64,000 nucleotides of DNA from Candidatus Iainarchaeum sp. (lineage in GTDB: Archaea > Iainarchaeota > Iainarchaeia > Iainarchaeales > JAZDFD01): contig JAZDFD010000001.1 in NCBI GenBank assembly GCA_043808155.1, positions 5,501-69,500 on the forward strand, given 5' to 3'. The notes beneath the pieces were generated by a model. It searched no databases. It had not been told where the DNA came from and worked only from the letters and a program-made list of their open reading frames with translations. Within the stretch, counting starts at the first letter, position 1; every line of letters begins with the position of its first letter. Made by a program: the position numbers and the translations under genes. Below are positions 4,706-51,743 of the stretch, one piece after another.

Positions 4706-4808
4706 AAACATAAGCGCAACCCTTACATATGTGCAAACCCATCGCGAGCTAAAGCGAGCGTATGGGTTATAGCTCAAGGATATCGCCTTGGCGAGCTAAA
4801 GCGAGCTA

Positions 4809-4869
4809 GTGTCAGTGCAACTGACACGCGGACTCGCCGGCCGTTCGGCGAGCTCGAGGATATCGCCTT
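4809..4869 (+). repeat. tRNA 5' leader module: hairpin gtgtcagtgcaactgacac plus GC-rich hairpin box actcgccggccgttcggcgag-ctcgaggatatcgcctt, abutting tRNA-Trp
   Basis: The 38 nt at 4832..4869 are identical to the reverse complement of 9675..9712, which abuts tRNA-Pro(TGG). ctcgccg/cggcgag forms a perfect 7-bp stem. Confidence 0.6.
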
Positions 4870-5111
4870 GGGGTCATAGTGTAACCTGGTATCACCACAG
4901 GCTCCAGAATTTTTATTTTTGGAGGCGGAGGGCATGTATTGTGCCCAATGACGAATAACAGGTAGGATGAGTCTGCTTTTGCAGGCAGTGACAAAAAATG
5001 TGAGTGCTTAAAGCACGAACAAGTGTCAGTGAAACTGACACGAATTCGCACGCGGAATTTGCCGCGTAGTGGAGTTACCTGTTAATCTGGGTTCAAATCC
5101 CGGTGACCCCA
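4870..5111 (+). tRNA. tRNA-Trp (anticodon CCA) with a ~169-nt intron at the canonical 37/38 position (about 4908..5076)
   Basis: Manual fold. Acceptor GGGGTCA pairs with TGACCCC, anticodon stem ACAGG pairs with CCTGT, anticodon loop is CTCCAGA, T-arm is CTGGG-TTCAAAT-CCCGG, discriminator A. Intron 3' TGGAG can pair with anticodon-loop CTCCA in a BHB-like arrangement. Confidence 0.8.
4908..5076 (+). ncRNA. tRNA-Trp intron with box C/D sRNA-like motifs
   Basis: C-box-like AATGACGA at 4947 is followed by ATAACAGGT, which is complementary to 3'-exon nucleotides 38-45. GATGAG lies at 4967 and CTGA at 5025. An internal copy of the hairpin plus GC-box module lies at 5014..5076. Confidence 0.4.
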
Positions 5112-5201
5112 CATTTCTTTTTTAGAATATTAATGAGGTATTGAGCGAAATCCGCCAATGGGACATAGAGTGTGCAAAGAACTTTAAGTTAATTGTAATA
5201 T

Positions 5202-6161
5202 GTGTTAGTTATGAACAAAAAATTTACAATTGGTATTCCTGCACATAATGAAGAAGAATCAATTGAAAGAACATTAAATAGTTTACTGAAAAGTAAAGTT
5301 CCCGCAGGTTACGAAAGAGAGATTATTGTTTGTGCGCATAATTGTCATGATAAAACAGCTGAAATAGTAAAACAGATTGCGAAAAAAGATAAAGAGGTAA
5401 AATTAATTGAACTCAGAACAACAGGAAAAAAAGAGGGGCGATTCAATCCATTAAATGAAATTAGGCGTGTCAGTAATTCAGAGATTATTATTTTTTGTGA
5501 CGCCGATGTGATAGTTGATAGCAGAGCCATAGGCAGACTTGTTTTAGATTTTGAAAAAATGCCACATATATTAGCAGCTTCAGGCGTATCGCGACCCACA
5601 GAAAGCAGAATTTTCATAAAACAAAAAGATCCAGCTAATATAATTACGTCTTTGAGAAAAAAACAAATACGAGAACCTGCTTTGCATGGTAGATTGTATG
5701 GAATAAGAACAAAATTAGTTCCGATATTTCCGCCATTAATGTTAGATGACCTTTTTATGTCTGCATGGGTAGGTAAAAACAGAATGCACATCGACCCAGA
5801 CGTAAAAGTATATTCCCGAAGCCCTCAAACAGTTGAAGACTATTATAAAAGACAGGTTTTGATGTACATAGCTGAACAAGAAATACTGGAAAATGCAGAA
5901 CGTTATGCTAAAGAGTACAGAGGAACTAAATCTGCGAGTTTGGATGATTTTATTAAATATGTGGAAGGTGTTGCTAAAAGCTACGAATTTGATCCTAAAA
6001 AAGTCCACAAGCCTCTGACTCAGGAAGAAACGTCTTTTGTTGAAGTTTATAAAATGCTGAGGGAAACAGCGAAAATGCATTCTCAGTGGGAACGTGACCC
6101 TCAGTGGGTTAAGACTCACAGTGCCAAATTGAAAAAAATAAATCCCAGTCACAGAAAATAA
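5202..6161 (+). CDS. Family 2 glycosyltransferase
   Basis: N-terminal IGIPAHNEEESI and CDADV (DxD) motifs typical of GT-A fold GT2. Confidence 0.75.
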   Translation: MLVMNKKFTIGIPAHNEEESIERTLNSLLKSKVPAGYEREIIVCAHNCHDKTAEIVKQIAKKDKEVKLIELRTTGKKEGRFNPLNEIRRVSNSEIIIFCDADVIVDSRAIGRLVLDFEKMPHILAASGVSRPTESRIFIKQKDPANIITSLRKKQIREPALHGRLYGIRTKLVPIFPPLMLDDLFMSAWVGKNRMHIDPDVKVYSRSPQTVEDYYKRQVLMYIAEQEILENAERYAKEYRGTKSASLDDFIKYVEGVAKSYEFDPKKVHKPLTQEETSFVEVYKMLRETAKMHSQWERDPQWVKTHSAKLKKINPSHRK

Positions 6162-6202
6162 ACTGAGAAATCCTTAAATAGTCCTGATTCTTTATTTATA
6201 CC

Positions 6203-6763
6203 ATGGCTATTAAGCAGAGAAATATGCTCTCGGAAGCAAGAAATGCTTTTTCAAAAAGTGATGTTTTCAAACTTCGTGAACTGAGCAATGAAGCCGTGAG
6301 GAACGCCTCACTGAATAATGATAAATTTATGGCAGAAATTGCAATTCTGGCTTATGCACTGCACAAACTTTCATCAAAAGAACACATTACAAAAAGCAGA
6401 CAATGGGAAACTATAAAAAAGAATATTCTGCGTTCAATGAGCAAAACAATTTCACTAATGGAATCTGAAAATTTAAAGGAATTCAAACAAAGTCTTAAAG
6501 AAGTAGTTGAGAGCGTAAGTGATGCAGATACTCATTTGGGCTATTTTTCACAGACACTTTACAGTAAAGCGCGGATAAAAGTTGCATCAACAGCTTATTC
6601 CTTAGGCATGTCTTTAAGTCAGGCAGTTGATTTAACAGATGCAGACAAAAGCAGATTACTTTCATATATTGGTGGCACGAGAATTTCAGACGAAGAAGTT
6701 GTCCACTTGGGAATTGCGGAAAGACTTGAAAAATTAAAGAAAGAACTGAGTGATAAGAAATGA
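6203..6763 (+). CDS. Hypothetical protein
   Basis: ORF with a 4-nt overlap to the downstream PIN-like gene. No recognisable motif. Confidence 0.35.
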   Translation: MAIKQRNMLSEARNAFSKSDVFKLRELSNEAVRNASLNNDKFMAEIAILAYALHKLSSKEHITKSRQWETIKKNILRSMSKTISLMESENLKEFKQSLKEVVESVSDADTHLGYFSQTLYSKARIKVASTAYSLGMSLSQAVDLTDADKSRLLSYIGGTRISDEEVVHLGIAERLEKLKKELSDKK

Positions 6764-7428
6764 AATTTATTGTTGATGCAAGTACACTTATTTCAATTTC
6801 TCAAACCTGTTTGATAAAAACTCTTGAAAATTTAAGACAACTGAGTTGTGAATTCGTAATTACCAAAAGCGTGGAATATGAAGCAGTAACACACCCTATG
6901 CAAATAAAACGTTTTGAACTAAATGCTGAAAGAATAAAAAAATCAATTGATGACGGATGGATTGAAATTTTAGAACCGATTGCGGAAACTGAGGAAATTG
7001 AAAAAAAAATTGAGTTTCTTGCAAATAATTCTTTTTTCTACAAACAAAAACCAATAAAAATAATTCACAGAGGAGAAATTGAAACTCTTGCATTGCTTAA
7101 GACTAGACAAGCAGATGCACTTGTTATTGATGAAAGAACTGCAAGAATGCTTATTGAAAATCCCGAGGCAATGAGAAAAACCATTCAAAGAAGAAAAGGT
7201 CTGATTATCAATAAAAATGAGAAAAATATTTCTGAATTAAAATCAATGTTTGAAGATGTAAGCATTTTGAGATCAACTGAATTAGTTGCGTTTGCATTTG
7301 AAAATGGTCTGCTTAAAGATGAAATTGGGGATACTAAACAGTCACTTGAGGCTGCACTCTACGCAGTGAAATACGCAGGCTGTGCTGTTTCGGGTTTTGA
7401 AATTGAACAGTTTCTGAAGGGAAAATAA
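6760..7428 (+). CDS. PIN-domain protein (PIN_5-like; possible HARP-type nuclease)
   Basis: N-terminal MKFIVDASTLISI (acidic D in strand 1) and a later ADALVIDERTARML segment match the PIN acidic-residue pattern. Confidence 0.45.
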   Translation: MKFIVDASTLISISQTCLIKTLENLRQLSCEFVITKSVEYEAVTHPMQIKRFELNAERIKKSIDDGWIEILEPIAETEEIEKKIEFLANNSFFYKQKPIKIIHRGEIETLALLKTRQADALVIDERTARMLIENPEAMRKTIQRRKGLIINKNEKNISELKSMFEDVSILRSTELVAFAFENGLLKDEIGDTKQSLEAALYAVKYAGCAVSGFEIEQFLKGK

Positions 7429-7897: not shown

Positions 7898-9352
7898 TTA
7901 GTAACTCTTTGCAAAGTATGCTTTTTCTTTTGCAGGTTTTCCGCATTTGATGCATTTTCCTTCATTACACTTTTGGCTGAAAGGAATGCATCTTGAGGTT
8001 GCAGTTGTTTCATCTTTTATTGTTTCTTCGCATTGTTCATTCATGCAGAAATATGCAAGCACAAATTTCTTGTCTTTTATTGCCTGTGTGAATTTGTCCC
8101 ATGAAGTCACTTCAGCAGTATTTTCATCTAAAAATTTCTTTGCTTTTTTGAAAAGATCTTTTTGCATTGTTTCAAGTTCTTTTTCAATTTCTTTTTCAAG
8201 ATCTGAGATTTTCACAAATTTCTTTTTGCCTGTGTCTCTTCTCACAATAACTGCCTGCTTTTTTTCCAAATCCTTTGGTCCGATTTCAACGCGTATTGGG
8301 ATTCCTTTCAGTTCCCATTCATTGAATTTCCAGCCCGCACTATGAGTTTCTCTGTTGTCAAAAATAGGATTGAATTTTTTCAGTTTTTTTGAAATTTTTT
8401 CTGTTTCTTTCAGAACTTTGTCTTTTGTTTTTTCGAAAATAATCGGAACAATTACAATTTTGTTGTAAGCGAGTTTTGGGGGGAGTATTAGTCCTTTGTC
8501 ATCCGAATGCGACATCACAGTTGCACCAATTAATCTTGTTGAGAAACCCCATGAACTTTGCCAGGGTAATTGTTCAGTGCTGTCTTCACCTATGAATTTT
8601 ATTCCGAAAGCTTTTGCAAAGCCCTGACCTAAATTGTGTGATGTTCCCATTTGCAGTGCTTTTCCGTCAGGCATTAGCGCTTCTAATGTCAGAGTGTAAT
8701 ATGCACCAGGAAATGTTTCATATTTTGATTTCATTCCTCCCAGCACAGGAATTGCAAGAAGTTCTTCGCATAATTTTTTGTATTCGCCAAGGAACATTTT
8801 CACTTCTGTGTCGCATTCTTCTTTTGTTGCATAGACACAATGCCCTTCCTGCCATAAAAATTCTCTTGTGCGTAAAAATAATTTAGTTTGTTTTACTTCC
8901 CATCTCAGAACATTACACCATTGGTTAATTCTCAAAGGGAGGTCTCTGTGTGAACGAATCCATTTTGAATAGGCATCATACATTATTGTTTCAGAAGTTG
9001 GCCGGATTGCAACTCTTTCTTCAGTGTCATCTTTAGATTCAATCCATGCTAATTCAGGTGCAAAACCTTCGGCATGTTCTGCTTCTTTTTTGAAGAAACT
9101 TTCAGGAATTAGTAAAGGAAAGTAACCATTCATTACTCCGTGTTCTTTAATTCGTGCATTGAAAAAATCCTGAATGCTTTCCCACATTGCATAGGCACGG
9201 GGACGTATAATCATGAAGCCACGCACTGGACCATAATCTGCAAGTTCTGCTTTCAGAACTATTTGATTGTACCATTCAGAAAAATCTTCTTCTTTTTTAA
9301 CAGTCAAACCAAGCTGCTGTTCTTCTTCTTTTTTTGCACACATTTTAATCAC
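7898..9352 (-). CDS. proS: Prolyl-tRNA synthetase (archaeal/eukaryotic type)
   Basis: Class II aaRS motifs with archaeal ProRS hallmarks (IRPTSETIMY, RINQWCNVLRWE) and a C-terminal zinc-binding Cys cluster. Confidence 0.9.
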   Translation of the reverse strand: MIKMCAKKEEEQQLGLTVKKEEDFSEWYNQIVLKAELADYGPVRGFMIIRPRAYAMWESIQDFFNARIKEHGVMNGYFPLLIPESFFKKEAEHAEGFAPELAWIESKDDTEERVAIRPTSETIMYDAYSKWIRSHRDLPLRINQWCNVLRWEVKQTKLFLRTREFLWQEGHCVYATKEECDTEVKMFLGEYKKLCEELLAIPVLGGMKSKYETFPGAYYTLTLEALMPDGKALQMGTSHNLGQGFAKAFGIKFIGEDSTEQLPWQSSWGFSTRLIGATVMSHSDDKGLILPPKLAYNKIVIVPIIFEKTKDKVLKETEKISKKLKKFNPIFDNRETHSAGWKFNEWELKGIPIRVEIGPKDLEKKQAVIVRRDTGKKKFVKISDLEKEIEKELETMQKDLFKKAKKFLDENTAEVTSWDKFTQAIKDKKFVLAYFCMNEQCEETIKDETTATSRCIPFSQKCNEGKCIKCGKPAKEKAYFAKSY

Positions 9353-9376
9353 TTACATAATGGTTTTTGAATTTTT

Positions 9377-9441
9377 AATATTACCGCACTATCGCACAGC
9401 AATAGTGCACATACAGATCTCCACCAGATCTCTCCGGTGTG
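9377..9441 (+). repeat. Composite two-hairpin repeat, copy 1 (aatattaccg - hairpin - cacatac - palindromic agatctccaccagatct)
   Basis: Flanks are conserved with the copies at 9532, 12434, 22653, 22737, 35257 and 40525. The stem is cactat/atagtg. It abuts the tRNA-Pro(GGG) 3' end. Confidence 0.55.
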
Positions 9442-9516
9442 TGGGAGCGCCCGGATTTGAACCGGGGTCGCAAGACCCCCAGCCTTGAATGCTAGACCAG
9501 ACTACACTACGCCCCC
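9442..9516 (-). tRNA. tRNA-Pro (anticodon GGG)
   Basis: Manual fold of the reverse complement. Acceptor GGGGGCG pairs with CGCTCCC, anticodon stem CAAGG pairs with TCTTG, loop CTGGGGG, T-arm CCCGG-TTCAAAT-CCGGG. Confidence 0.85.
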
Positions 9517-9531
9517 TACAAAAAAATTTGA

Positions 9532-9599
9532 CATATTACTGCAGGTTCGAATGAAATGAGAATCTGCACATATTCGTACCCGCCGGACGTGACGGCGAA
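9532..9599 (+). repeat. Composite two-hairpin repeat, copy 2 (catattactg - hairpin caggttc..gaatctg - cacatat - GC box cccgccggacgtgacggcg)
   Basis: Lies between the two tRNA-Pro genes. The stem mismatch is G-U compatible only on the + strand. Confidence 0.55.
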
Positions 9600-9674
9600 T
9601 GGGACCACCCGGATTTGAACCGGAGTCACAAGCTCCCAAAGCTTGAATGCTAGACCAGACTACACCATGGCCCC
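9600..9674 (-). tRNA. tRNA-Pro (anticodon TGG)
   Basis: Acceptor GGGGCCA pairs with TGGTCCC, anticodon stem CAAGC pairs with GCTTG, loop TTTGGGA, T-arm TCCGG-TTCAAAT-CCGGG, discriminator A. Confidence 0.85.
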
Positions 9675-9735
9675 AAGGCGATATCCTCGAGCTCGCCGAA
9701 CGGCCGGCGAGTGCAGGCACCACTTTCAGTGGCGC
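9675..9735 (-). repeat. tRNA 5' leader module upstream of tRNA-Pro(TGG): GC-rich hairpin box plus hairpin
   Basis: The reverse complement of 9675..9712 equals 4832..4869, the tRNA-Trp leader, over 38/38 nt. It is preceded by hairpin gcgccactgaaagtggtgc. Confidence 0.6.
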
Positions 9736-9912
9736 TAGCTCACTACGTTCGCTAAGGCTTAAACCTTCGACATTAAACTCAAGAATTGCTGAAAAAGATT
9801 TGGTTTGATAAGTATTAAAAATAGAACTTTTAATCCAGTGGAACCAATCCCCTTCTTTTCATGTGAATCAAATTAATTAAGTGAGGAAGAATTTAAATAG
9901 TTTTTCATTGTA

Positions 9913-12433: not shown

Positions 12434-12508
12434 AATTATTACCGTGGCATTGAGCAAAACGAAATGCCACACATAAATCGGAGCACCCGTACGAAATCGG
12501 GTAGGTGG
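12434..12508 (+). repeat. Composite two-hairpin repeat, copy 3 (aattattaccg - hairpin tggcatt..aatgcca - cacataa - hairpin cccgtacgaaatcggg)
   Basis: Sits between the lig stop and the alaX start. Same flank and hairpin architecture as the other copies. Confidence 0.5.
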
Positions 12509-22736: not shown

Positions 22737-22804
22737 AATATTACTGCGGGGTTGAAAACCCCGCATATATGTTCACAATCGGAACGCCGATTAGCCCCGA
22801 GGAG
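22737..22804 (+). repeat. Composite two-hairpin repeat, copy 4b (aatattactg - hairpin cggggttgaaaaccccg - catatatg - hairpin atcggaacgccgat), ending in a 13-nt fragment of the tRNA-Gln 3' end (tagccccgaggag)
   Basis: The 13-nt tail at 22792..22804 is identical to 22871..22883 inside tRNA-Gln. The hairpin is near-identical to one inside the tRNA-Arg intron. Confidence 0.55.
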
Positions 22805-22870
22805 TTCCACACATAGGGGCAACTACGTTTCCCCCTATTACCCCCTTCCTTTAATTATTAATAAAAAAGA

Positions 22871-22943
22871 TAGCCCCGAGGAGATTCGAACTCCTGTCAC
22901 CGGGTCCAAAGCCCAGCATCCTTGGCCACTAGACTACGGGGCT
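22871..22943 (-). tRNA. tRNA-Gln (anticodon TTG)
   Basis: Acceptor AGCCCCG pairs with CGGGGCT, anticodon stem CTGGG pairs with CCCGG, loop CTTTGGA, T-arm AGGAG-TTCGAAT-CTCCT. Confidence 0.85.
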
Positions 22944-22969
22944 AGTTTAAAGGAACTTAATAATTAGCT

Positions 22970-24181
22970 TTAGATTACGTATTTAAAGCTTTCTGGACTG
23001 AAAATATTGAACTTAGTTTTGTATTTTTTGATTTTGTTTAAGTTATGTTTTTGAGGGAGGGTAGCGCAGTTGGTAGCGCACGCGACTGATAATCGCGCGG
23101 TCATGGGTTCGAATCCCATTCTTCCCACTATTTTACGTAGAAGTTCATTTTTCTCCACACCGCAGTATTTTTTGCTCTTTTTTGAAATTTTCACACCATC
23201 AACAAAACCACCTAATTTCCAAAAATTTCTTATTGACTTTGAATCATAAATTCTAACACCACAAGCACCTGACCACGAACTTTTGCGCTTTCCAATTTTT
23301 CCATTGAGTCCATATTTCTTAAAAATAGTCTGCCATTGTTTGCACAAATTTGCATTATAGCATCCTAAATTCAATTCTGACTTCTTAGTTTTTGGATAGC
23401 TAATGCAACCATCAGTTGTAAAAGCAAAGCGAATGCACCAACTAAGTGTCTTCTCATCACATTTGTTTAGAAAATCTAGAGTTGGTTGTGGTTCATTTAA
23501 ATATTCGTTAACAGTTTGTCGATGTGCAGGAGATGTTTTGTAATTTGGGCTTAGTTTAAACAATTTCCGAGATAGAGTTGCATCTGTAAGTTTCAGATTA
23601 AACACTCCTTTTTTAGATTTATTAATTGCAGGCACATATCTACTAAGTCTAAGTAAAAGGCTGTTCATAAAATCCCTCAATATCGGATCTTTTGTAGAAT
23701 AAGCTATTCTATTTCTATCCCCACATGCTGAAAGAGAACCATCTGTCATCAGACAAGTTGCAAGAATGCACATTAGATTAACACAATCTTTTTCAAGCAA
23801 AGTTAGTAACTTATTATCAATTTTAATATTAAAGTCACTTTGAAGATTCTTTCTGCTTATGTGCGTTCTTATATATTTAGTATATTCATAAATATTTTCT
23901 ATTTGAGCTATTCTTGCTGAACCGCCTTTTCTTGCACTCCAATTCATAGGTAATTTCTTCCCAATATAGTTCTCAAATTCTTTCAATTCGGGTTGTAAAA
24001 TACATATTTTCTGAAAAACTGAAAAAGTCATGTTGCATTTTTCTTTTAACCAGTCTTTTAATGTCCATCTGCCGAGTTCTAACAATTCCGAGAGTTCTCT
24101 TTGTGGAAGATTTTGTTTCTTGTAAAAAGCCAATAAAAATTCTCGCTGTTTTCCTTTTTTAAATTTCAGCCTAAAGTTCAT
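22970..24181 (-). CDS. Free-standing double-motif LAGLIDADG-family homing endonuclease-like protein; the 3' end of the ORF reads through the antisense of tRNA-Ile
   Basis: Two LAGLIDADG-like motifs ILATCLMTDGSL and IRFAFTTDGCIS lie about 109 aa apart, each with Asp before Gly. An N-terminal HTH-like region is present. The last ~50 codons are the antisense of tRNA-Ile at 23055..23127, so the true C-terminus is uncertain. Confidence 0.5.
   Translation of the reverse strand: MNFRLKFKKGKQREFLLAFYKKQNLPQRELSELLELGRWTLKDWLKEKCNMTFSVFQKICILQPELKEFENYIGKKLPMNWSARKGGSARIAQIENIYEYTKYIRTHISRKNLQSDFNIKIDNKLLTLLEKDCVNLMCILATCLMTDGSLSACGDRNRIAYSTKDPILRDFMNSLLLRLSRYVPAINKSKKGVFNLKLTDATLSRKLFKLSPNYKTSPAHRQTVNEYLNEPQPTLDFLNKCDEKTLSWCIRFAFTTDGCISYPKTKKSELNLGCYNANLCKQWQTIFKKYGLNGKIGKRKSSWSGACGVRIYDSKSIRNFWKLGGFVDGVKISKKSKKYCGVEKNELLRKIVGRMGFEPMTARLSVACATNCATLPQKHNLNKIKKYKTKFNIFSPESFKYVI
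23055..23127 (+). tRNA. tRNA-Ile (anticodon GAT)
   Basis: Acceptor GGGAGGG pairs with TCTTCCC, D-arm GCGC-AGTTGGTA-GCGC, anticodon stem CGCGA pairs with TCGCG, loop CTGATAA, T-arm ATGGG-TTCGAAT-CCCAT. Confidence 0.85.
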
Positions 24182-33788: not shown

Positions 33789-34235
33789 ATGACTATGACA
33801 CATTCAGATTTGTTTGGCAAGAAAATAGTTATTAGGAGTTTTTTTGTTACGCCCTTGATTTTTTTATTTATTGTTTTAGTAATGAGTTCTAATCCCAGCT
33901 TTGGAAATATAAGCGACATACAAAAAGCTGTGCTCCCATTTATTGCAATAACGTTTGCATTAGTGGGAATTATATCTAATGTTTTTGCTAGATTTACACT
34001 TGAGCAACAATTAAAAAATACAGAACAGGATTTTCCAATACTACTAATAATGATGACTTTTTCAGAAATACCAGTAATTTTAGGTTTGATTCTTACAATA
34101 CTGCTTGAAGAAATAATATACTTCTTTGGATTTTTTGTTTTAACATATTTACTAATGTTATGGAATTTCGGTCTTGTAAAAAACTGGGAACAGAAGATGC
34201 AAGAAGACCAAGACCAAACGGGGATGTATGCATAG
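33789..34235 (+). CDS. Hypothetical integral membrane protein
   Basis: Four predicted TM helices. Confidence 0.35.
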   Translation: MTMTHSDLFGKKIVIRSFFVTPLIFLFIVLVMSSNPSFGNISDIQKAVLPFIAITFALVGIISNVFARFTLEQQLKNTEQDFPILLIMMTFSEIPVILGLILTILLEEIIYFFGFFVLTYLLMLWNFGLVKNWEQKMQEDQDQTGMYA

Positions 34236-34387
34236 CCCCTGGGGATATTCACACACAGGGGACTCCATTCGCGATAATCCAACCAAACTTTACGAGAATA
34301 GTGAGATCACAACAACTTATCTGATGAGTAAAATAAACAAGTCTGCAAAGGAAATCCTTATATATCATTTGTATACCTATTTGATGT

Positions 34388-34654
34388 ATGAGCAATAAAA
34401 TGATTAATTTGAGATTGGGCAATCGTCTTATCCAAGAGATTGACAAAGCAGTAAAAGAAGAGCTTTACGAGAACAGAACTGAATTTATAAGAGCAATTTT
34501 AAGGGAAAAACTCAAAGAACGAAAAACAGAGAAATTAATCCAGAATTTGAAGAAAAGACAGGGCGAGGGAAAGCGATTGGGGATCAAAGACCCTTCAGAA
34601 GAAGAGTTCAGAAAAATCAGGGAAAATACATGGGATAAATTACATGAATCATAA
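34388..34654 (+). CDS. Ribbon-helix-helix (CopG-like) DNA-binding protein
   Basis: N-terminal MINLRLGNRLIQEIDKAV...NRTEFIRAILRE matches the RHH beta-strand plus helix pattern. Confidence 0.55.
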   Translation: MSNKMINLRLGNRLIQEIDKAVKEELYENRTEFIRAILREKLKERKTEKLIQNLKKRQGEGKRLGIKDPSEEEFRKIRENTWDKLHES

Positions 34655-35077
34655 TTCTTCAGGAAGAAAAGATTTTGTAATGTGATTGAGTTTCTCAAAA
34701 TGCTTATCTCTAGAAACGACAATTGCACCATAATCTCTTGCAAGTACTGCGCACAAAGAATCTGTTTTAGGAATGTTGAATTTCTTGGAAATTTTCCTAG
34801 CTTCTTCAACTTGCGTATCAGAAGAATCAATAAATTCAATTTTCTTCGCATTCAGCAATTCTTTAAACACGGTATTTTGCAGATGTGATTCATTACAATT
34901 CAATATGTTTTTAATTTCAAAAACAACGTCCTTTGGAATAATCAGAAAATATTTACAACTTACTGCGTTATTGAAAAACTGAAATGCGAATTCGCCAAGC
35001 GGTTTAATTGAATCTTTTCTATCAAAATAATAATCAAGAAAAATATTTGAATCCACAAAGACTCTCTCAGCAACCAT
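34649..35077 (-). CDS. PIN-domain (VapC-like) nuclease
   Basis: VFVDSNIFLDY at the N-terminus and AIVVSRDKHF near the C-terminus give the PIN acidic tetrad pattern. The gene is convergent with, and overlaps by 6 nt, the RHH gene. Confidence 0.65.
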   Translation of the reverse strand: MVAERVFVDSNIFLDYYFDRKDSIKPLGEFAFQFFNNAVSCKYFLIIPKDVVFEIKNILNCNESHLQNTVFKELLNAKKIEFIDSSDTQVEEARKISKKFNIPKTDSLCAVLARDYGAIVVSRDKHFEKLNHITKSFLPEEL

Positions 35078-35144: not shown

Positions 35145-35216
35145 AGCCCCTGGGGAGATTCGAACTCCCGATCCCTTGTTTACGAAACAAGTGCTTTACC
35201 ACTAAGCCACAGAGGC
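35145..35216 (-). tRNA. tRNA-Thr (anticodon CGT)
   Basis: Acceptor GCCTCTG pairs with CAGGGGC, D-arm GCTT..AAGC, anticodon stem CTTGT pairs with ACAAG, loop TTCGTAA, T-arm GGGAG-TTCGAAT-CTCCC. Confidence 0.8.
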
Positions 35217-35256: not shown

Positions 35257-35325
35257 ATATATTACCGTGGGATTGAACAAAGTGAAATCCCACATATATT
35301 CGCACTCGCCGGGCGCGACGGCGAA
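35257..35325 (+). repeat. Composite two-hairpin repeat, copy 5 (atatattaccg - hairpin tgggatt..aatccca - catatat - GC box cactcgccgggcgcgacggcg)
   Basis: About 40 nt from the tRNA-Thr 5' end and abutting the glyS stop. Same architecture as the other copies. Confidence 0.55.
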
Positions 35326-40317: not shown

Positions 40318-40360
40318 GTGCCACTTTAGTGGCACCCGTACTAGCCGGACGTGACGGCGT
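40318..40360 (+). repeat. tRNA 5' leader module upstream of tRNA-Arg: hairpin gtgccactttagtggcac plus GC box ccgtactagccggacgtgacggcgtg
   Basis: Directly abuts the tRNA-Arg 5' end. An orphan near-identical copy lies at 40763..40804. Confidence 0.55.
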
Positions 40361-40501
40361 GGGCCTGTGGCGCAACGGATAGCGCAGCTGCCTCCTAACG
40401 GACAGATCCGTTAACGATCTGTATGTGCGGGGTTTTCAACCCCGCGATAATAATACGTGGGAGCGAGCAGAAGGTTGAGAGTTCGATTCTCTCCGGGCCC
40501 G
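40361..40501 (+). tRNA. tRNA-Arg (anticodon CCT) with ~68-nt intron at 37/38 (about 40398..40465)
   Basis: Acceptor GGGCCTG pairs with CGGGCCC, D-arm GCGC-AACGGATA-GCGC, anticodon stem GCTGC pairs with GCAGA, loop CTCCTA(A), T-arm GAGAG-TTCGATT-CTCTC. Intron 3' GGAG pairs with loop CTCC in a BHB-like arrangement. The intron contains hairpin gcggggttttcaaccccgc. Confidence 0.8.
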
Positions 40502-40524
40502 ATATTCATTTTTTGTAATTTTAG

Positions 40525-40607
40525 AAATATTACTGCACTGTTGTGCAAAACAATAGTGCACATATCGCACTAGCCGGGCGTTCGGCTTTCGATTCTCTCC
40601 GGGCCCG
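40525..40607 (+). repeat. Composite two-hairpin repeat, copy 6 (aaatattactg - hairpin cactgttg..caatagtg - cacatat - GC box ctagccgggcgttcggc) fused to a 20-nt duplicate of the tRNA-Arg 3' end
   Basis: 40588..40607 (ttcgattctctccgggcccg) is identical to 40482..40501. It is followed by palindromic gcctttttaaaaaaaggc. Confidence 0.6.
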
Positions 40608-40762
40608 CCTTTTTAAAAAAAGGCAGGTTGCAACTTAAACCAATGAGGTTTAAGTGCACACTGAAACCAAAGTTTCAGTTGTGCCAAAAAGGCAAATCCT
40701 TTGGGATTTGCACATCTATTTTTTCAAAACAACTTTTATTAACAACCGAGCCCAAGCGAGAT

Positions 40763-40804
40763 GTGCCACTGCAAGTGGCACTCGTACTAGCCGGACGTGA
40801 CGGC
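40763..40804 (+). repeat. Orphan tRNA-leader-type module: hairpin gtgccactgcaagtggcac plus GC box tcgtactagccggacgtgacggc, with no tRNA following
   Basis: Near-identical to 40318..40359. It lies downstream of three further perfect 8-9 bp hairpins in 40600..40740. Confidence 0.5.
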
Positions 40805-40875
40805 TTAAGCAAATAACGTCCTGGCAATGTACGATTGACGTAAACCTTAAAAACTAGTTTTTACATATAAATTGT

Positions 40876-51241: not shown

Positions 51242-51320
51242 ACTTCTTCTAATTTCTATTTTTTATAATTCTGTTTTTGTCTGTTATTTTTATTATCCTG
51301 TTTTGACCTGTTATTTTTTA

Positions 51321-51743
51321 TTATCCTATTTTTATCAGTTCGCAATTTTCATCTAATTCTATAAAATATTCTGCGTTGTTTTCTCTGAATGCTGAACATT
51401 GATTTTCCGGAAGATTATCAATTTCTGTTCGCGGGTTGTGTGCAATGTCACATACGTAATTTGGCATCTCCTGAATAGGATTTCCAATGCATGGACCGGC
51501 GCTTAAATCTCCGCCATCTGAAATTTTAAGTTCACACAAATCCCTGCACATTTTTACTGCAGCATCCTGTGTTGAAAGTTTTTCCACTGTAGGATAATTG
51601 AAAAAATCAGTAAACAGCAACAGTGAAAATAAAATAAGCACAGCAGCAATAATGAGAACAATTATCGATTTTTTCATACTACAAATAGAGCCGAAAACAA
51701 TAAAAAAAGAAAAAGAGAAAATCCCTTTCGGGATTTTAACCAC
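51321..51743 (-). CDS. Small secreted Cys-rich protein
   Basis: N-terminal TM or signal peptide and eight Cys in the mature part. Confidence 0.35.
   Translation of the reverse strand: MVKIPKGIFSFSFFIVFGSICSMKKSIIVLIIAAVLILFSLLLFTDFFNYPTVEKLSTQDAAVKMCRDLCELKISDGGDLSAGPCIGNPIQEMPNYVCDIAHNPRTEIDNLPENQCSAFRENNAEYFIELDENCELIKIG

Follow-up and report, generated by a model that had tools for sequence, protein, structure and literature searches.

Bacterial REP/REPIN elements and integron attC sites are structure-defined palindromic repeats, and homing cassettes with free-standing LAGLIDADG genes typically show an endonuclease gene alongside decayed copies and replaced alleles. Islands and proviruses integrated at tRNA genes are described in Islander (PMC4383910), in work on archaeal tyrosine recombinases (PMC8371274) and for the T-loop attB of mycobacteriophage Ms6 (PMC1762012); the islands are bounded by a regenerated gene and a displaced fragment (PMC4383910), a geometry that integrases make at tRNA genes (PMC4383910, PMC8371274). 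Intron transposition in Thermoproteales was described in a 2010 study, and its mechanism is termed unknown in PMC4090602. The tRNA-Thr locus of Caldiarchaeum subterraneum is heterogeneous (Sugahara et al. 2012, PMC3293823), and split and permuted tRNA genes occur in Nanoarchaeum, Caldivirga and Staphylothermus (PMC3218864). The gain of archaeal tRNA introns and the fragmentation of archaeal tRNA genes are an open question, addressed here by the tRNA-Arg(CCT) locus in a 64,000-nucleotide (nt) stretch of Candidatus Iainarchaeum sp. (Diapherotrites/Iainarchaeota; contig JAZDFD010000001.1, positions 5,501-69,500), called the window, which has a low GC content of ~35% and encodes a fibrillarin 100% identical to one from a 'Candidatus Diapherotrites archaeon' MAG. 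Along its whole length the tRNA-Arg intron is one inverted unit of a family of two-hairpin repeats, and an exact copy of the tRNA 3' end lies downstream of the gene. The intron and the duplicate are read, at a probability of roughly 55%, as traces left when a tRNA hot spot underwent insertion or recombination at the DNA level.

The gene and its flanks are composed of the following features.

40318..40360, + strand: unit B3, consisting of H1 (GTGCCACTTTAGTGGCAC), CCGT and H2 (ACTAGCCGGACGTGACGGC); probably the tRNA-Arg 5' leader
40361..40397, + strand: tRNA-Arg(CCT) 5' exon, positions 1-37, with the anticodon at 40394-40396 (Rfam, ARAGORN)
40398..40465, + strand: tRNA-Arg intron, 68 nt, at the canonical 37/38 site (ARAGORN, fold)
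40400..40453, - strand: inverted A-type unit that fills the intron, reading TATTATTATCG-H1(CGGGGTTGAAAACCCCG)-CACATAC-H2(AGATCGTTAACGGATCT)
40427..40445, + strand: intron hairpin GCGGGGTTTTCAACCCCGC, identical in reverse complement to H1 of unit A4 (22746-22764)
40466..40501, + strand: tRNA-Arg 3' exon, whose final 20 nt (40482-40501) serve as the left copy of a direct repeat
40509..40514, + strand: T6 run 8 nt past tRNA-Arg, from its sequence a likely archaeal terminator
40527..40587, + strand: unit A6, forward, reading ATATTACTG-H1(CACTGTTGTGCAAAACAATAGTG)-CACATATCGC-H2(ACTAGCCGGGCGTTCGGC)-TT (profile E=3.4e-10)
40588..40607, + strand: positions 54-73 of tRNA-Arg repeated without mismatch (right copy of the direct repeat)
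40625..40725, + strand: short-hairpin cluster ending in GCACATCTATTTTTT, resembling degenerate unit material, with no Rfam match
40762..40805, + strand: unit B4, a B-type orphan that shares 97% identity with B3 over 31 nt, at the right edge of the window-specific segment

The Rfam tRNA model scores 40361-40501 (+) at 47.6 bits with an insert in the anticodon loop. ARAGORN, run with introns allowed, returns a tRNA with anticodon cct whose 68-nt intron is placed at position 39; its default run missed intron-containing tRNA genes that the introns-allowed run recovered. ARAGORN thereby bears out the 68-nt tRNA-Arg(CCT) intron of the original prediction, an earlier reading of this DNA made from the sequence, with the intron lying after position 37. 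The joined exons give a standard cloverleaf with the acceptor, D and T arms paired in the predicted fold. A bulge-helix-bulge can be drawn by hand from the intron ends and exon sequence, with C32-C35 paired to GGAG (40460-40463), UAA as the 5' bulge and CGA (40464-40466) as the 3' bulge; the outer helix of this drawing has just 2-3 bp and the unconstrained minimum-energy fold shifts the register. We infer that the intron is spliced.

The intron belongs to a family that recurs across the window. The motif ATATTACYG has 10 occurrences in the window versus 0.54 expected, six of which open a common unit, and a seventh intergenic unit, A8 (12436), has a variant start. An A unit consists, in order, of an AT-rich stretch, ATATTAYYG, hairpin H1, CACATAY, a short stretch closed by CAC, and hairpin H2, and all H1 and H2 segments fold as hairpins despite differing stem sequences. 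Seven intergenic A-type copies are present besides the intron, mostly adjoining tRNA genes. The B form is without the AT-rich flanks and is found upstream of tRNA-Arg, tRNA-Trp and tRNA-Pro(UGG); B3 ends 2 nt before G1 of tRNA-Arg, and B1 and B2 have an extra 17-nt hairpin, H3, between H2 and G1. The members compared with the introns are these.

4806..5112, + strand: leader unit B1 (4806-4869) and tRNA-Trp(CCA) (4870-5112)
9378..9598, + strand: units A1 (9378-9441) and A2 (9533-9598)
22738..22804, + strand: unit A4, whose H1 equals the intron H1

The reverse-complemented intron aligns along its length with six intergenic units. Against an nhmmer profile of the seven intergenic units, with the intron left out, the intron is the best non-training match (E=0.0088, minus strand). 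The intron hairpin shows 19/19 inverted identity to 22746-22764, with 0 expected in shuffles, and the inverted match to A4 extends to 31 nt at 90%. The intron matches A1 over 42 nt at 74%, including the region after H1 of A1 (CACATACAGATC), and its H2 is A1-like. The 169-nt intron of tRNA-Trp(CCA) likewise has a B-like unit at ~5023-5068, with the same H1 as leader B1. The sequence exchange between introns and repeat units put forward in the original prediction is supported because the entire tRNA-Arg intron is an inverted unit; the case is stronger than was claimed and takes in the tRNA-Trp intron. The predicted resemblance of the intron hairpin to a repeat copy is also real, but what was called near-identical is an exact reverse complement, and the coordinate given, 22747, is one off.

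The units match no Rfam family, tRNAs being the sole matches in the window at gathering and E<=1 thresholds. No unit members were found in ~1 Mb of relatives' loci by strict or 1-mismatch regular expression with a hairpin filter or by the nhmmer A-unit profile, and a contig scan found the units absent from ~50% identical DPANN, Asgard and methanogen fibrillarin loci. Inspection by eye found no terminal inverted repeats or short target duplications at the units. Derivation from a miniature inverted-repeat transposable element or insertion sequence (IS) was rejected: stem sequences differ widely among copies and no transposase was found. Readings of the unit as a C/D-box or H/ACA RNA, an IS200/IS605 element, a casposon or a long-terminal-repeat primer-binding site were dropped on inspection of the sequence, given the missing box motifs, pseudouridylation pocket and terminal inverted repeats, the wrong hairpin spacing and a tRNA copy that is sense and not antisense.

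Placement and conservation give the units a second possible interpretation. Units A1 and A2 begin directly past the discriminators of tRNA-Pro(GGG) and tRNA-Pro(UGG) on the tRNA strand, A5 comes after the GlyRS stop codon, and A8 lies between the DNA ligase and AlaX genes. The relative L013 (fibrillarin 89% identical; loci of relatives are cited by L numbers) has a B3-type unit upstream of tRNA-Arg with a compensatory H2 change, GCCG/CGGC in the window to GGCG/CGCC, and L015 has an H2-only version of B3 at the same place. An 11-nt loop, GAGCAAAACGA, is common to H1 of A8 and to a hairpin 3' of tRNA-Arg in L043, which is from another genus; the stems that carry it have two double substitutions, and the 25-nt alignment has a score reached by 0/500 shuffles. 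Because of the compensatory changes and a loop conserved across genera, the repeat hairpins are under structural selection and not mere junk. The units could then be functional punctuation of tRNA transcription (leaders, trailers, terminators, promoters or protein-binding hairpins) that are alike through function and gene conversion, the intron copy and the duplicate being by-products of local gene conversion among modules. This is rather unlikely. It accommodates the B units 0-2 nt (B3) or 17 nt (B1, B2) before G1 of tRNA-Trp, tRNA-Pro(UGG) and tRNA-Arg, the A units right past both tRNA-Pro discriminators, the H2 kept in L013 and L015, a GARYRAARYGA loop that recurs over covarying stems in A2, A5, A8, L014 and L043, and an AT-rich end at TATA distance from tRNA-Pro(GGG) and the ProRS start. 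It does not accommodate unit orientations that are inconsistent with respect to neighbouring genes (A6 and A8 forward, the others reverse), the plain promoters of tRNA-Ile, tRNA-Thr and tRNA-Gln, or the lack of units in most relatives, and it leaves an exact copy of positions 54-73, absent in L020 and L039, unexplained.

The duplicate is the second component of the locus. The 20-mer TTCGATTCTCTCCGGGCCCG is found only twice in the window even with three mismatches allowed (40482-40501 and 40588-40607; 0 in 100 shuffles) and consists of the T-loop (7 nt), the 3' strand of the T-stem (5), the 3' strand of the acceptor stem (7) and the discriminator (1). The two copies point the same way and repeat the tRNA from T54 to the discriminator (20/20), as expected of integrase-type events, and the T-loop-to-3'-end boundaries are those used by tRNA-targeting integrases. 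The original prediction correctly described a perfect 20-nt duplicate from T-loop to discriminator but placed it 80 nt downstream; the spacing between the copies is 86 nt, and this segment contains no open reading frame (ORF). After the right copy come CC and a palindromic, terminator-like T5/A7 hairpin (40607-40624). The flank of this copy, G-CC-TTTTTA..., is closer than the left-copy flank to the G-TTTTTA... that follows the tRNA in L020, which weakly supports the right copy as the ancestral tRNA-Arg 3' end.

A survey of 71 tRNA genes in ~1.07 Mb of Diapherotrites sequence was used to look for same-sense copies of the last 20 nt, with <=3 mismatches, outside tRNA genes. Just 3 of the 71 have such a copy, namely window tRNA-Arg, window tRNA-Thr and L043 tRNA-Arg. 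Chance abundance of 20-nt T-arm matches had been named in the original prediction as a result that would count against it; at 3/71, such matches are therefore not common by chance. The tRNA-Thr copy is located as follows.

34234..34253, - strand: same-sense 17/20 match to positions 54-73 of tRNA-Thr(CGT), 892 nt past the 3' end of that gene (35145-35216, -)

The enclosed ~890-bp segment carries PIN (34649-35077) and RHH (34388-34654) genes, both missing in relatives. The segment 34234-35216 has the look of a small integrated toxin-antitoxin islet. The tRNA-Gln gene (22869-22944, minus) has a same-sense exact 13-nt copy of its 3' end, TAGCCCCGAGGAG (22792-22804), that follows A4, lies 57-66 nt downstream of the gene and is flanked by units; the match is 16/22, a level reached by 0/200 background chunks. 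Weaker, degenerate 3'-end copies are present in L088 and L057 (14/22 each), L029 and L096.

A parallel case is L043, whose HTH (helix-turn-helix) protein is 69% identical. Here the tRNA-Arg 3' end recurs 79 nt downstream as an exact 20-nt copy, again running from T54 to the discriminator. It matches the T-stem of L043 itself, which is different from that of the window, and is preceded by hairpins and then GGC-TT, as in the window. The L043 and window spacers share this architecture (hairpins, GGC-TT, T54...) with no significant sequence match and cannot be aligned, so the duplicates look like independent events of one kind; the attempted spacer alignment gave no demonstrable common descent for them.

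Three other origins for the duplicate bear on these observations. The first is a small-RNA gene made up of A6 and the 20-nt tail, with an AT-rich promoter, a ~50-nt transcript (H2 plus the tRNA-Arg 3' end) and a T5 stop, that would act as a tRF-3-like mimic or decoy. A TATA-like ATATTAC is found upstream, a T5 run comes directly past the tail and CC, both 20-nt copies are undecayed at 20/20, and L043 has the same architecture with a tail that matches its own T-stem. However, the arrangement is absent in the nearest relatives of both genomes, the L043 tail has no T-run after it, predicted folds are not conserved, no Rfam family is matched, and the degenerate copies (tRNA-Gln 16/22, tRNA-Thr 17/20, L088 and L057 14/22) look like decaying scars, making a small RNA quite improbable. 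Tandem duplication of tRNA-Arg followed by loss of positions 1-53 from the second copy is highly improbable, as random decay would not keep 20/20 while losing all the other 53 nt; there is no similarity outside the 20-mer, and the same T54 boundary in two genera would be unexplained. The window does provide a tandem precedent in the tRNA-Pro(UGG)/(GGG) pair, whose members are separated by one A-type unit and have 3' ends that are 19/22 identical.

The third origin is the split or fragmented tRNA history that the original prediction offered as its alternative, in which the downstream 20-mer would be expressed on its own as a 3' piece and joined to a 5' piece from another locus. A leader-like hairpin does precede the fragment, and DPANN archaea are known for split tRNA genes and broad-specificity splicing endonucleases (PMC3218864, PMC3239211). 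This history was not borne out and is barely credible: tRNA-Arg(CCT) is present as an intact gene 86 nt upstream, no orphan 5' fragment or truncated tRNA match occurs in the window, and the sequence preceding the 3' fragment is same-sense to the tRNA leader and not complementary to any trailer. No complement to the leader of the fragment turned up, although no search aimed at one was made. A split at position 53/54 is not known from split tRNAs.

Orthologous loci differ at both the intron and the duplicate. The conserved gene order is fibrillarin, membrane protein, tRNA-Arg(CCT), HTH gene and NMD3. The tRNA-Arg(CCT) genes of L015-L018 lack an intron, the one in L019 carries a short intron, and unrelated introns of ~15-170 nt occupy the same tRNA-Arg site in other relatives. 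L020, a ~90% relative with an HTH protein that is 91% identical, has the same 3' exon and an intron that ends in GGAAA versus GGGAGCGA in the window. Past tRNA-Arg in L020, an HD-domain ORF occupies the place that A6, the duplicate and B4 have in the window, and the two sequences become homologous again at ~40806-40809 (CAAATAACG). The unit and the duplicate are absent in L020 and in L015-L019. The same difference is seen in the other genus, where L039, with 95% nt identity to L043 in the adjacent gene, is without the spacer and duplicate of L043. Different ORFs lie downstream of tRNA-Arg in L016, L019, L020 and L039. The length and content polymorphism at tRNA-Arg is therefore strong, and the invariance among relatives that would have told against the original prediction was not found. 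Displaced 5' fragments (~13-27 nt) of another tRNA-Arg allele lie directly upstream of the gene in L075, L085 and L088, a pattern that suggests allele replacement.

The case for insertion or recombination at a hot spot draws on an intron that belongs to the repeat family, on the exactness and boundaries of the direct repeat, on recurrence at other tRNAs and in another genus, and on presence or absence between close relatives. We infer the direction of events and the enzyme. A repeat unit would have inserted in inverted orientation at the 37/38 site, giving or replacing essentially the whole 68-nt intron. The insertion would have been tolerated because the intron ends and exon sequence can form a bulge-helix-bulge, leaving the unit harmless once the splicing endonuclease removes the intron. 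At the T-loop, a 106-nt insertion or replacement would have supplied new positions 54-73 followed by the T-rich stretch and the forward unit, and the original tRNA-Arg 3' end with its own terminator would have been pushed 86 nt downstream as a dead fragment. The resulting geometry would be a regenerated target and a displaced fragment, as when elements integrate site-specifically at tRNA genes. Such an event could be the work of a tyrosine integrase at the T-loop, or of double-strand-break repair after cleavage by a tRNA-targeting homing endonuclease.

Several results weigh against this reading. A Pfam scan of ~60 of the 75 candidate window ORFs found no integrase, transposase or recombinase; ~14 ORFs are without any match and ~15, mostly short, fall outside the scan. 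The inserts at tRNA-Arg (86 nt), tRNA-Gln (66 nt) and L043 (79 nt) are too small for free circular elements, and each is one hairpin unit, an outcome not expected if larger islands had decayed at random. The other units are without flanking duplications. No attP-bearing element or excision product was found, the exact 20-mer being absent from viral contigs; searches of these contigs with the Arg, L043, Thr and Gln 3' cores and the A-unit pattern gave few matches, located in unrelated coding sequence or phage tRNA genes. A search near the window tRNA-Arg found no LAGLIDADG gene or endonuclease remnant. The architecture shared by L043 and the window could instead mean a selected function, and the structural selection on the hairpins also weighs against this reading. 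The chief difficulties are the small, unit-sized inserts and the architecture kept in L043, which leave room for the functional interpretations as transcript punctuation or a small RNA. The signature of past integration, excision or recombination claimed in the original prediction is supported in kind by the boundaries, the absence in L020 and the tRNA-Thr cargo, and is held in check by the missing integrase, the 86-nt insert and the lack of an excision product or attP.

A broader proposal, which is possible but tentative, is that the units are a structure-defined class of mobile DNA with conserved ATATTAC/CACATAT flanks and with stems that vary in sequence but covary, spread by a recombinase or by endonuclease-triggered repair. 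Landing in an anticodon loop would create a spliceable intron, and landing in a T-loop would create a regenerated end and a displaced fragment.

Candidate endonucleases are found at the tRNA-Arg genes of relatives. A double-LAGLIDADG family of ~320-350 aa abuts tRNA-Arg(CCT) in six relatives' loci, with remnants in three more, and its profile matches the intein endonucleases 7qss and 1dq3 (a fold match).

L039:14-478, L040:~8130-9088, L061:~5930-6859 and L063:715-1170, same strand as tRNA-Arg: LAGLIDADG genes ending at the tRNA-Arg 5' end
L083:139-~1090 and L085:2622-~3650, opposite strand: LAGLIDADG genes ending at the tRNA-Arg 3' end
L057:8981-9088, L078:5655-5732 and L097:5990-6106: LAGLIDADG remnants

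The window itself has a ~350-aa LAGLIDADG_3 ORF (E=3.9e-8) at 23130-24181 (-) that converges on tRNA-Ile (23055-23128, +) and reads through the tRNA antisense (C-terminal GFEPMT...). This ORF may be a free-standing homing endonuclease that targets the tRNA gene. Comparison of the tRNA-Arg-linked family with the tRNA-Ile-linked ORF by hhalign was not significant.

Other features of the tRNA-Arg loci were recorded. The tRNA-Arg(CCT) genes at L039:474-594 and L081:1829-1937 have a non-canonical intron in the anticodon-stem region, and the L039 gene also has a canonical intron. A 5' fragment of a different tRNA-Arg allele lies at L043:9048-9062. The motif GGCAATTGACGAAAC(N)CTTTTAAAG is conserved upstream of the 236-aa HTH gene in the window (40835-40860) and in all relatives, and is likely the operator or promoter of that gene.

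The repeat units have further features of their own. The H1 loops of A2 (9550-9562), A5 (35276-35286), A8 (12453-12463), L014:~3795 and L043:9193-9203 conform to the consensus GARYRAARYGA on covarying stems. This arrangement of stem, GA, 7 nt, GA and stem is K-loop-like, and L7Ae binding would be possible. GACGTGA is present in several H2 loops. Two tRNA-Pro genes and ProRS run head to tail on the minus strand (7898-9740) with one A-type unit between each, and the AT-rich end of each of these units is at TATA-box distance from the next gene. The left flanks of A1 (9376-9384), A3, A4, A6 and A8 match NANTATTAC; A1 reads TAATATTAC, the nonanucleotide nicked by the HUH Rep of CRESS-DNA viruses, here beside the hairpin and not in its loop, which is probably coincidence. 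The tRNA-Trp leader is long and multi-hairpin with a 21-nt internal duplication (4771-4791 / 4851-4871), and the tRNA-Trp intron has C/D-box-like motifs (AATGACGA, GATGAG and a possible D-like TGAC). Elsewhere, three tandem 27-28-nt repeats (TTTTTATNATYCTGTTTTT...) at 51260-51341 are intergenic and lie beside ORFs without Pfam matches.

The locus offers a testable DPANN system for DNA-level intron gain and tRNA-gene rearrangement. The intron reproduces an intergenic repeat in full, so that its donor family can be named; neither the intron nor the 3'-end duplicate is the same in close relatives; and the LAGLIDADG endonuclease genes abutting tRNA genes in the phylum indicate candidate agents. 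If the mobile-unit class is real, it would be the first traceable source of archaeal tRNA intron gain.

Compared with the described systems, the locus resembles tRNA-integrated islands in its same-sense T-loop-to-3'-end repeat, its regenerated gene and displaced fragment and its presence or absence between relatives, and the window tRNA-Thr locus adds accessory cargo (PIN, RHH). It is unlike them in that neither an integrase nor an attP element was found, and in that a resident hairpin repeat, 66-86 nt in length, makes up three of the four inserts. As in Thermoproteales, the intron sequence is common to other loci of the same genome, implying gain at the DNA level, and a bulge-helix-bulge is needed; the kin of the window intron, however, are not other introns but intergenic units that lie, in either orientation, at tRNA leaders and trailers, and the locus is from a DPANN archaeon and uses the canonical site only. 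Intron gain and a scattered tRNA fragment at one locus are shared with the Caldiarchaeum tRNA-Thr locus, which has a 1.8-kb element, a recombinase gene and a 5' fragment where the window tRNA-Arg has 86 nt, no recombinase and a 3' fragment. A free-standing fragment behind a GC-rich structured leader recalls split tRNA genes, from which the locus differs by its complete gene, by the lack of any complementary partner found and by a break at the T-loop and not at 37/38.

The possible likeness to REP/REPIN elements and attC sites consists of short conserved flanks (ATATTAC/CACATAT) around a variable paired hairpin and of intergenic placement in both orientations. The units differ from these in being archaeal, tied to tRNA genes and present in introns, and no RAYT or IntI-like gene was seen. 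Homing cassettes are matched by the relatives' endonuclease gene, which abuts tRNA-Arg in either orientation together with remnants and allele replacement, its cleavage being putative; the window tRNA-Arg differs in having no LAGLIDADG gene. What sets the locus apart from all of these precedents is that the kin of the intron are intergenic tRNA-flank units, that the same family stands at a fresh 3'-end duplication of the same gene, and that both are found in a DPANN lineage in which endonuclease genes abut tRNA genes.

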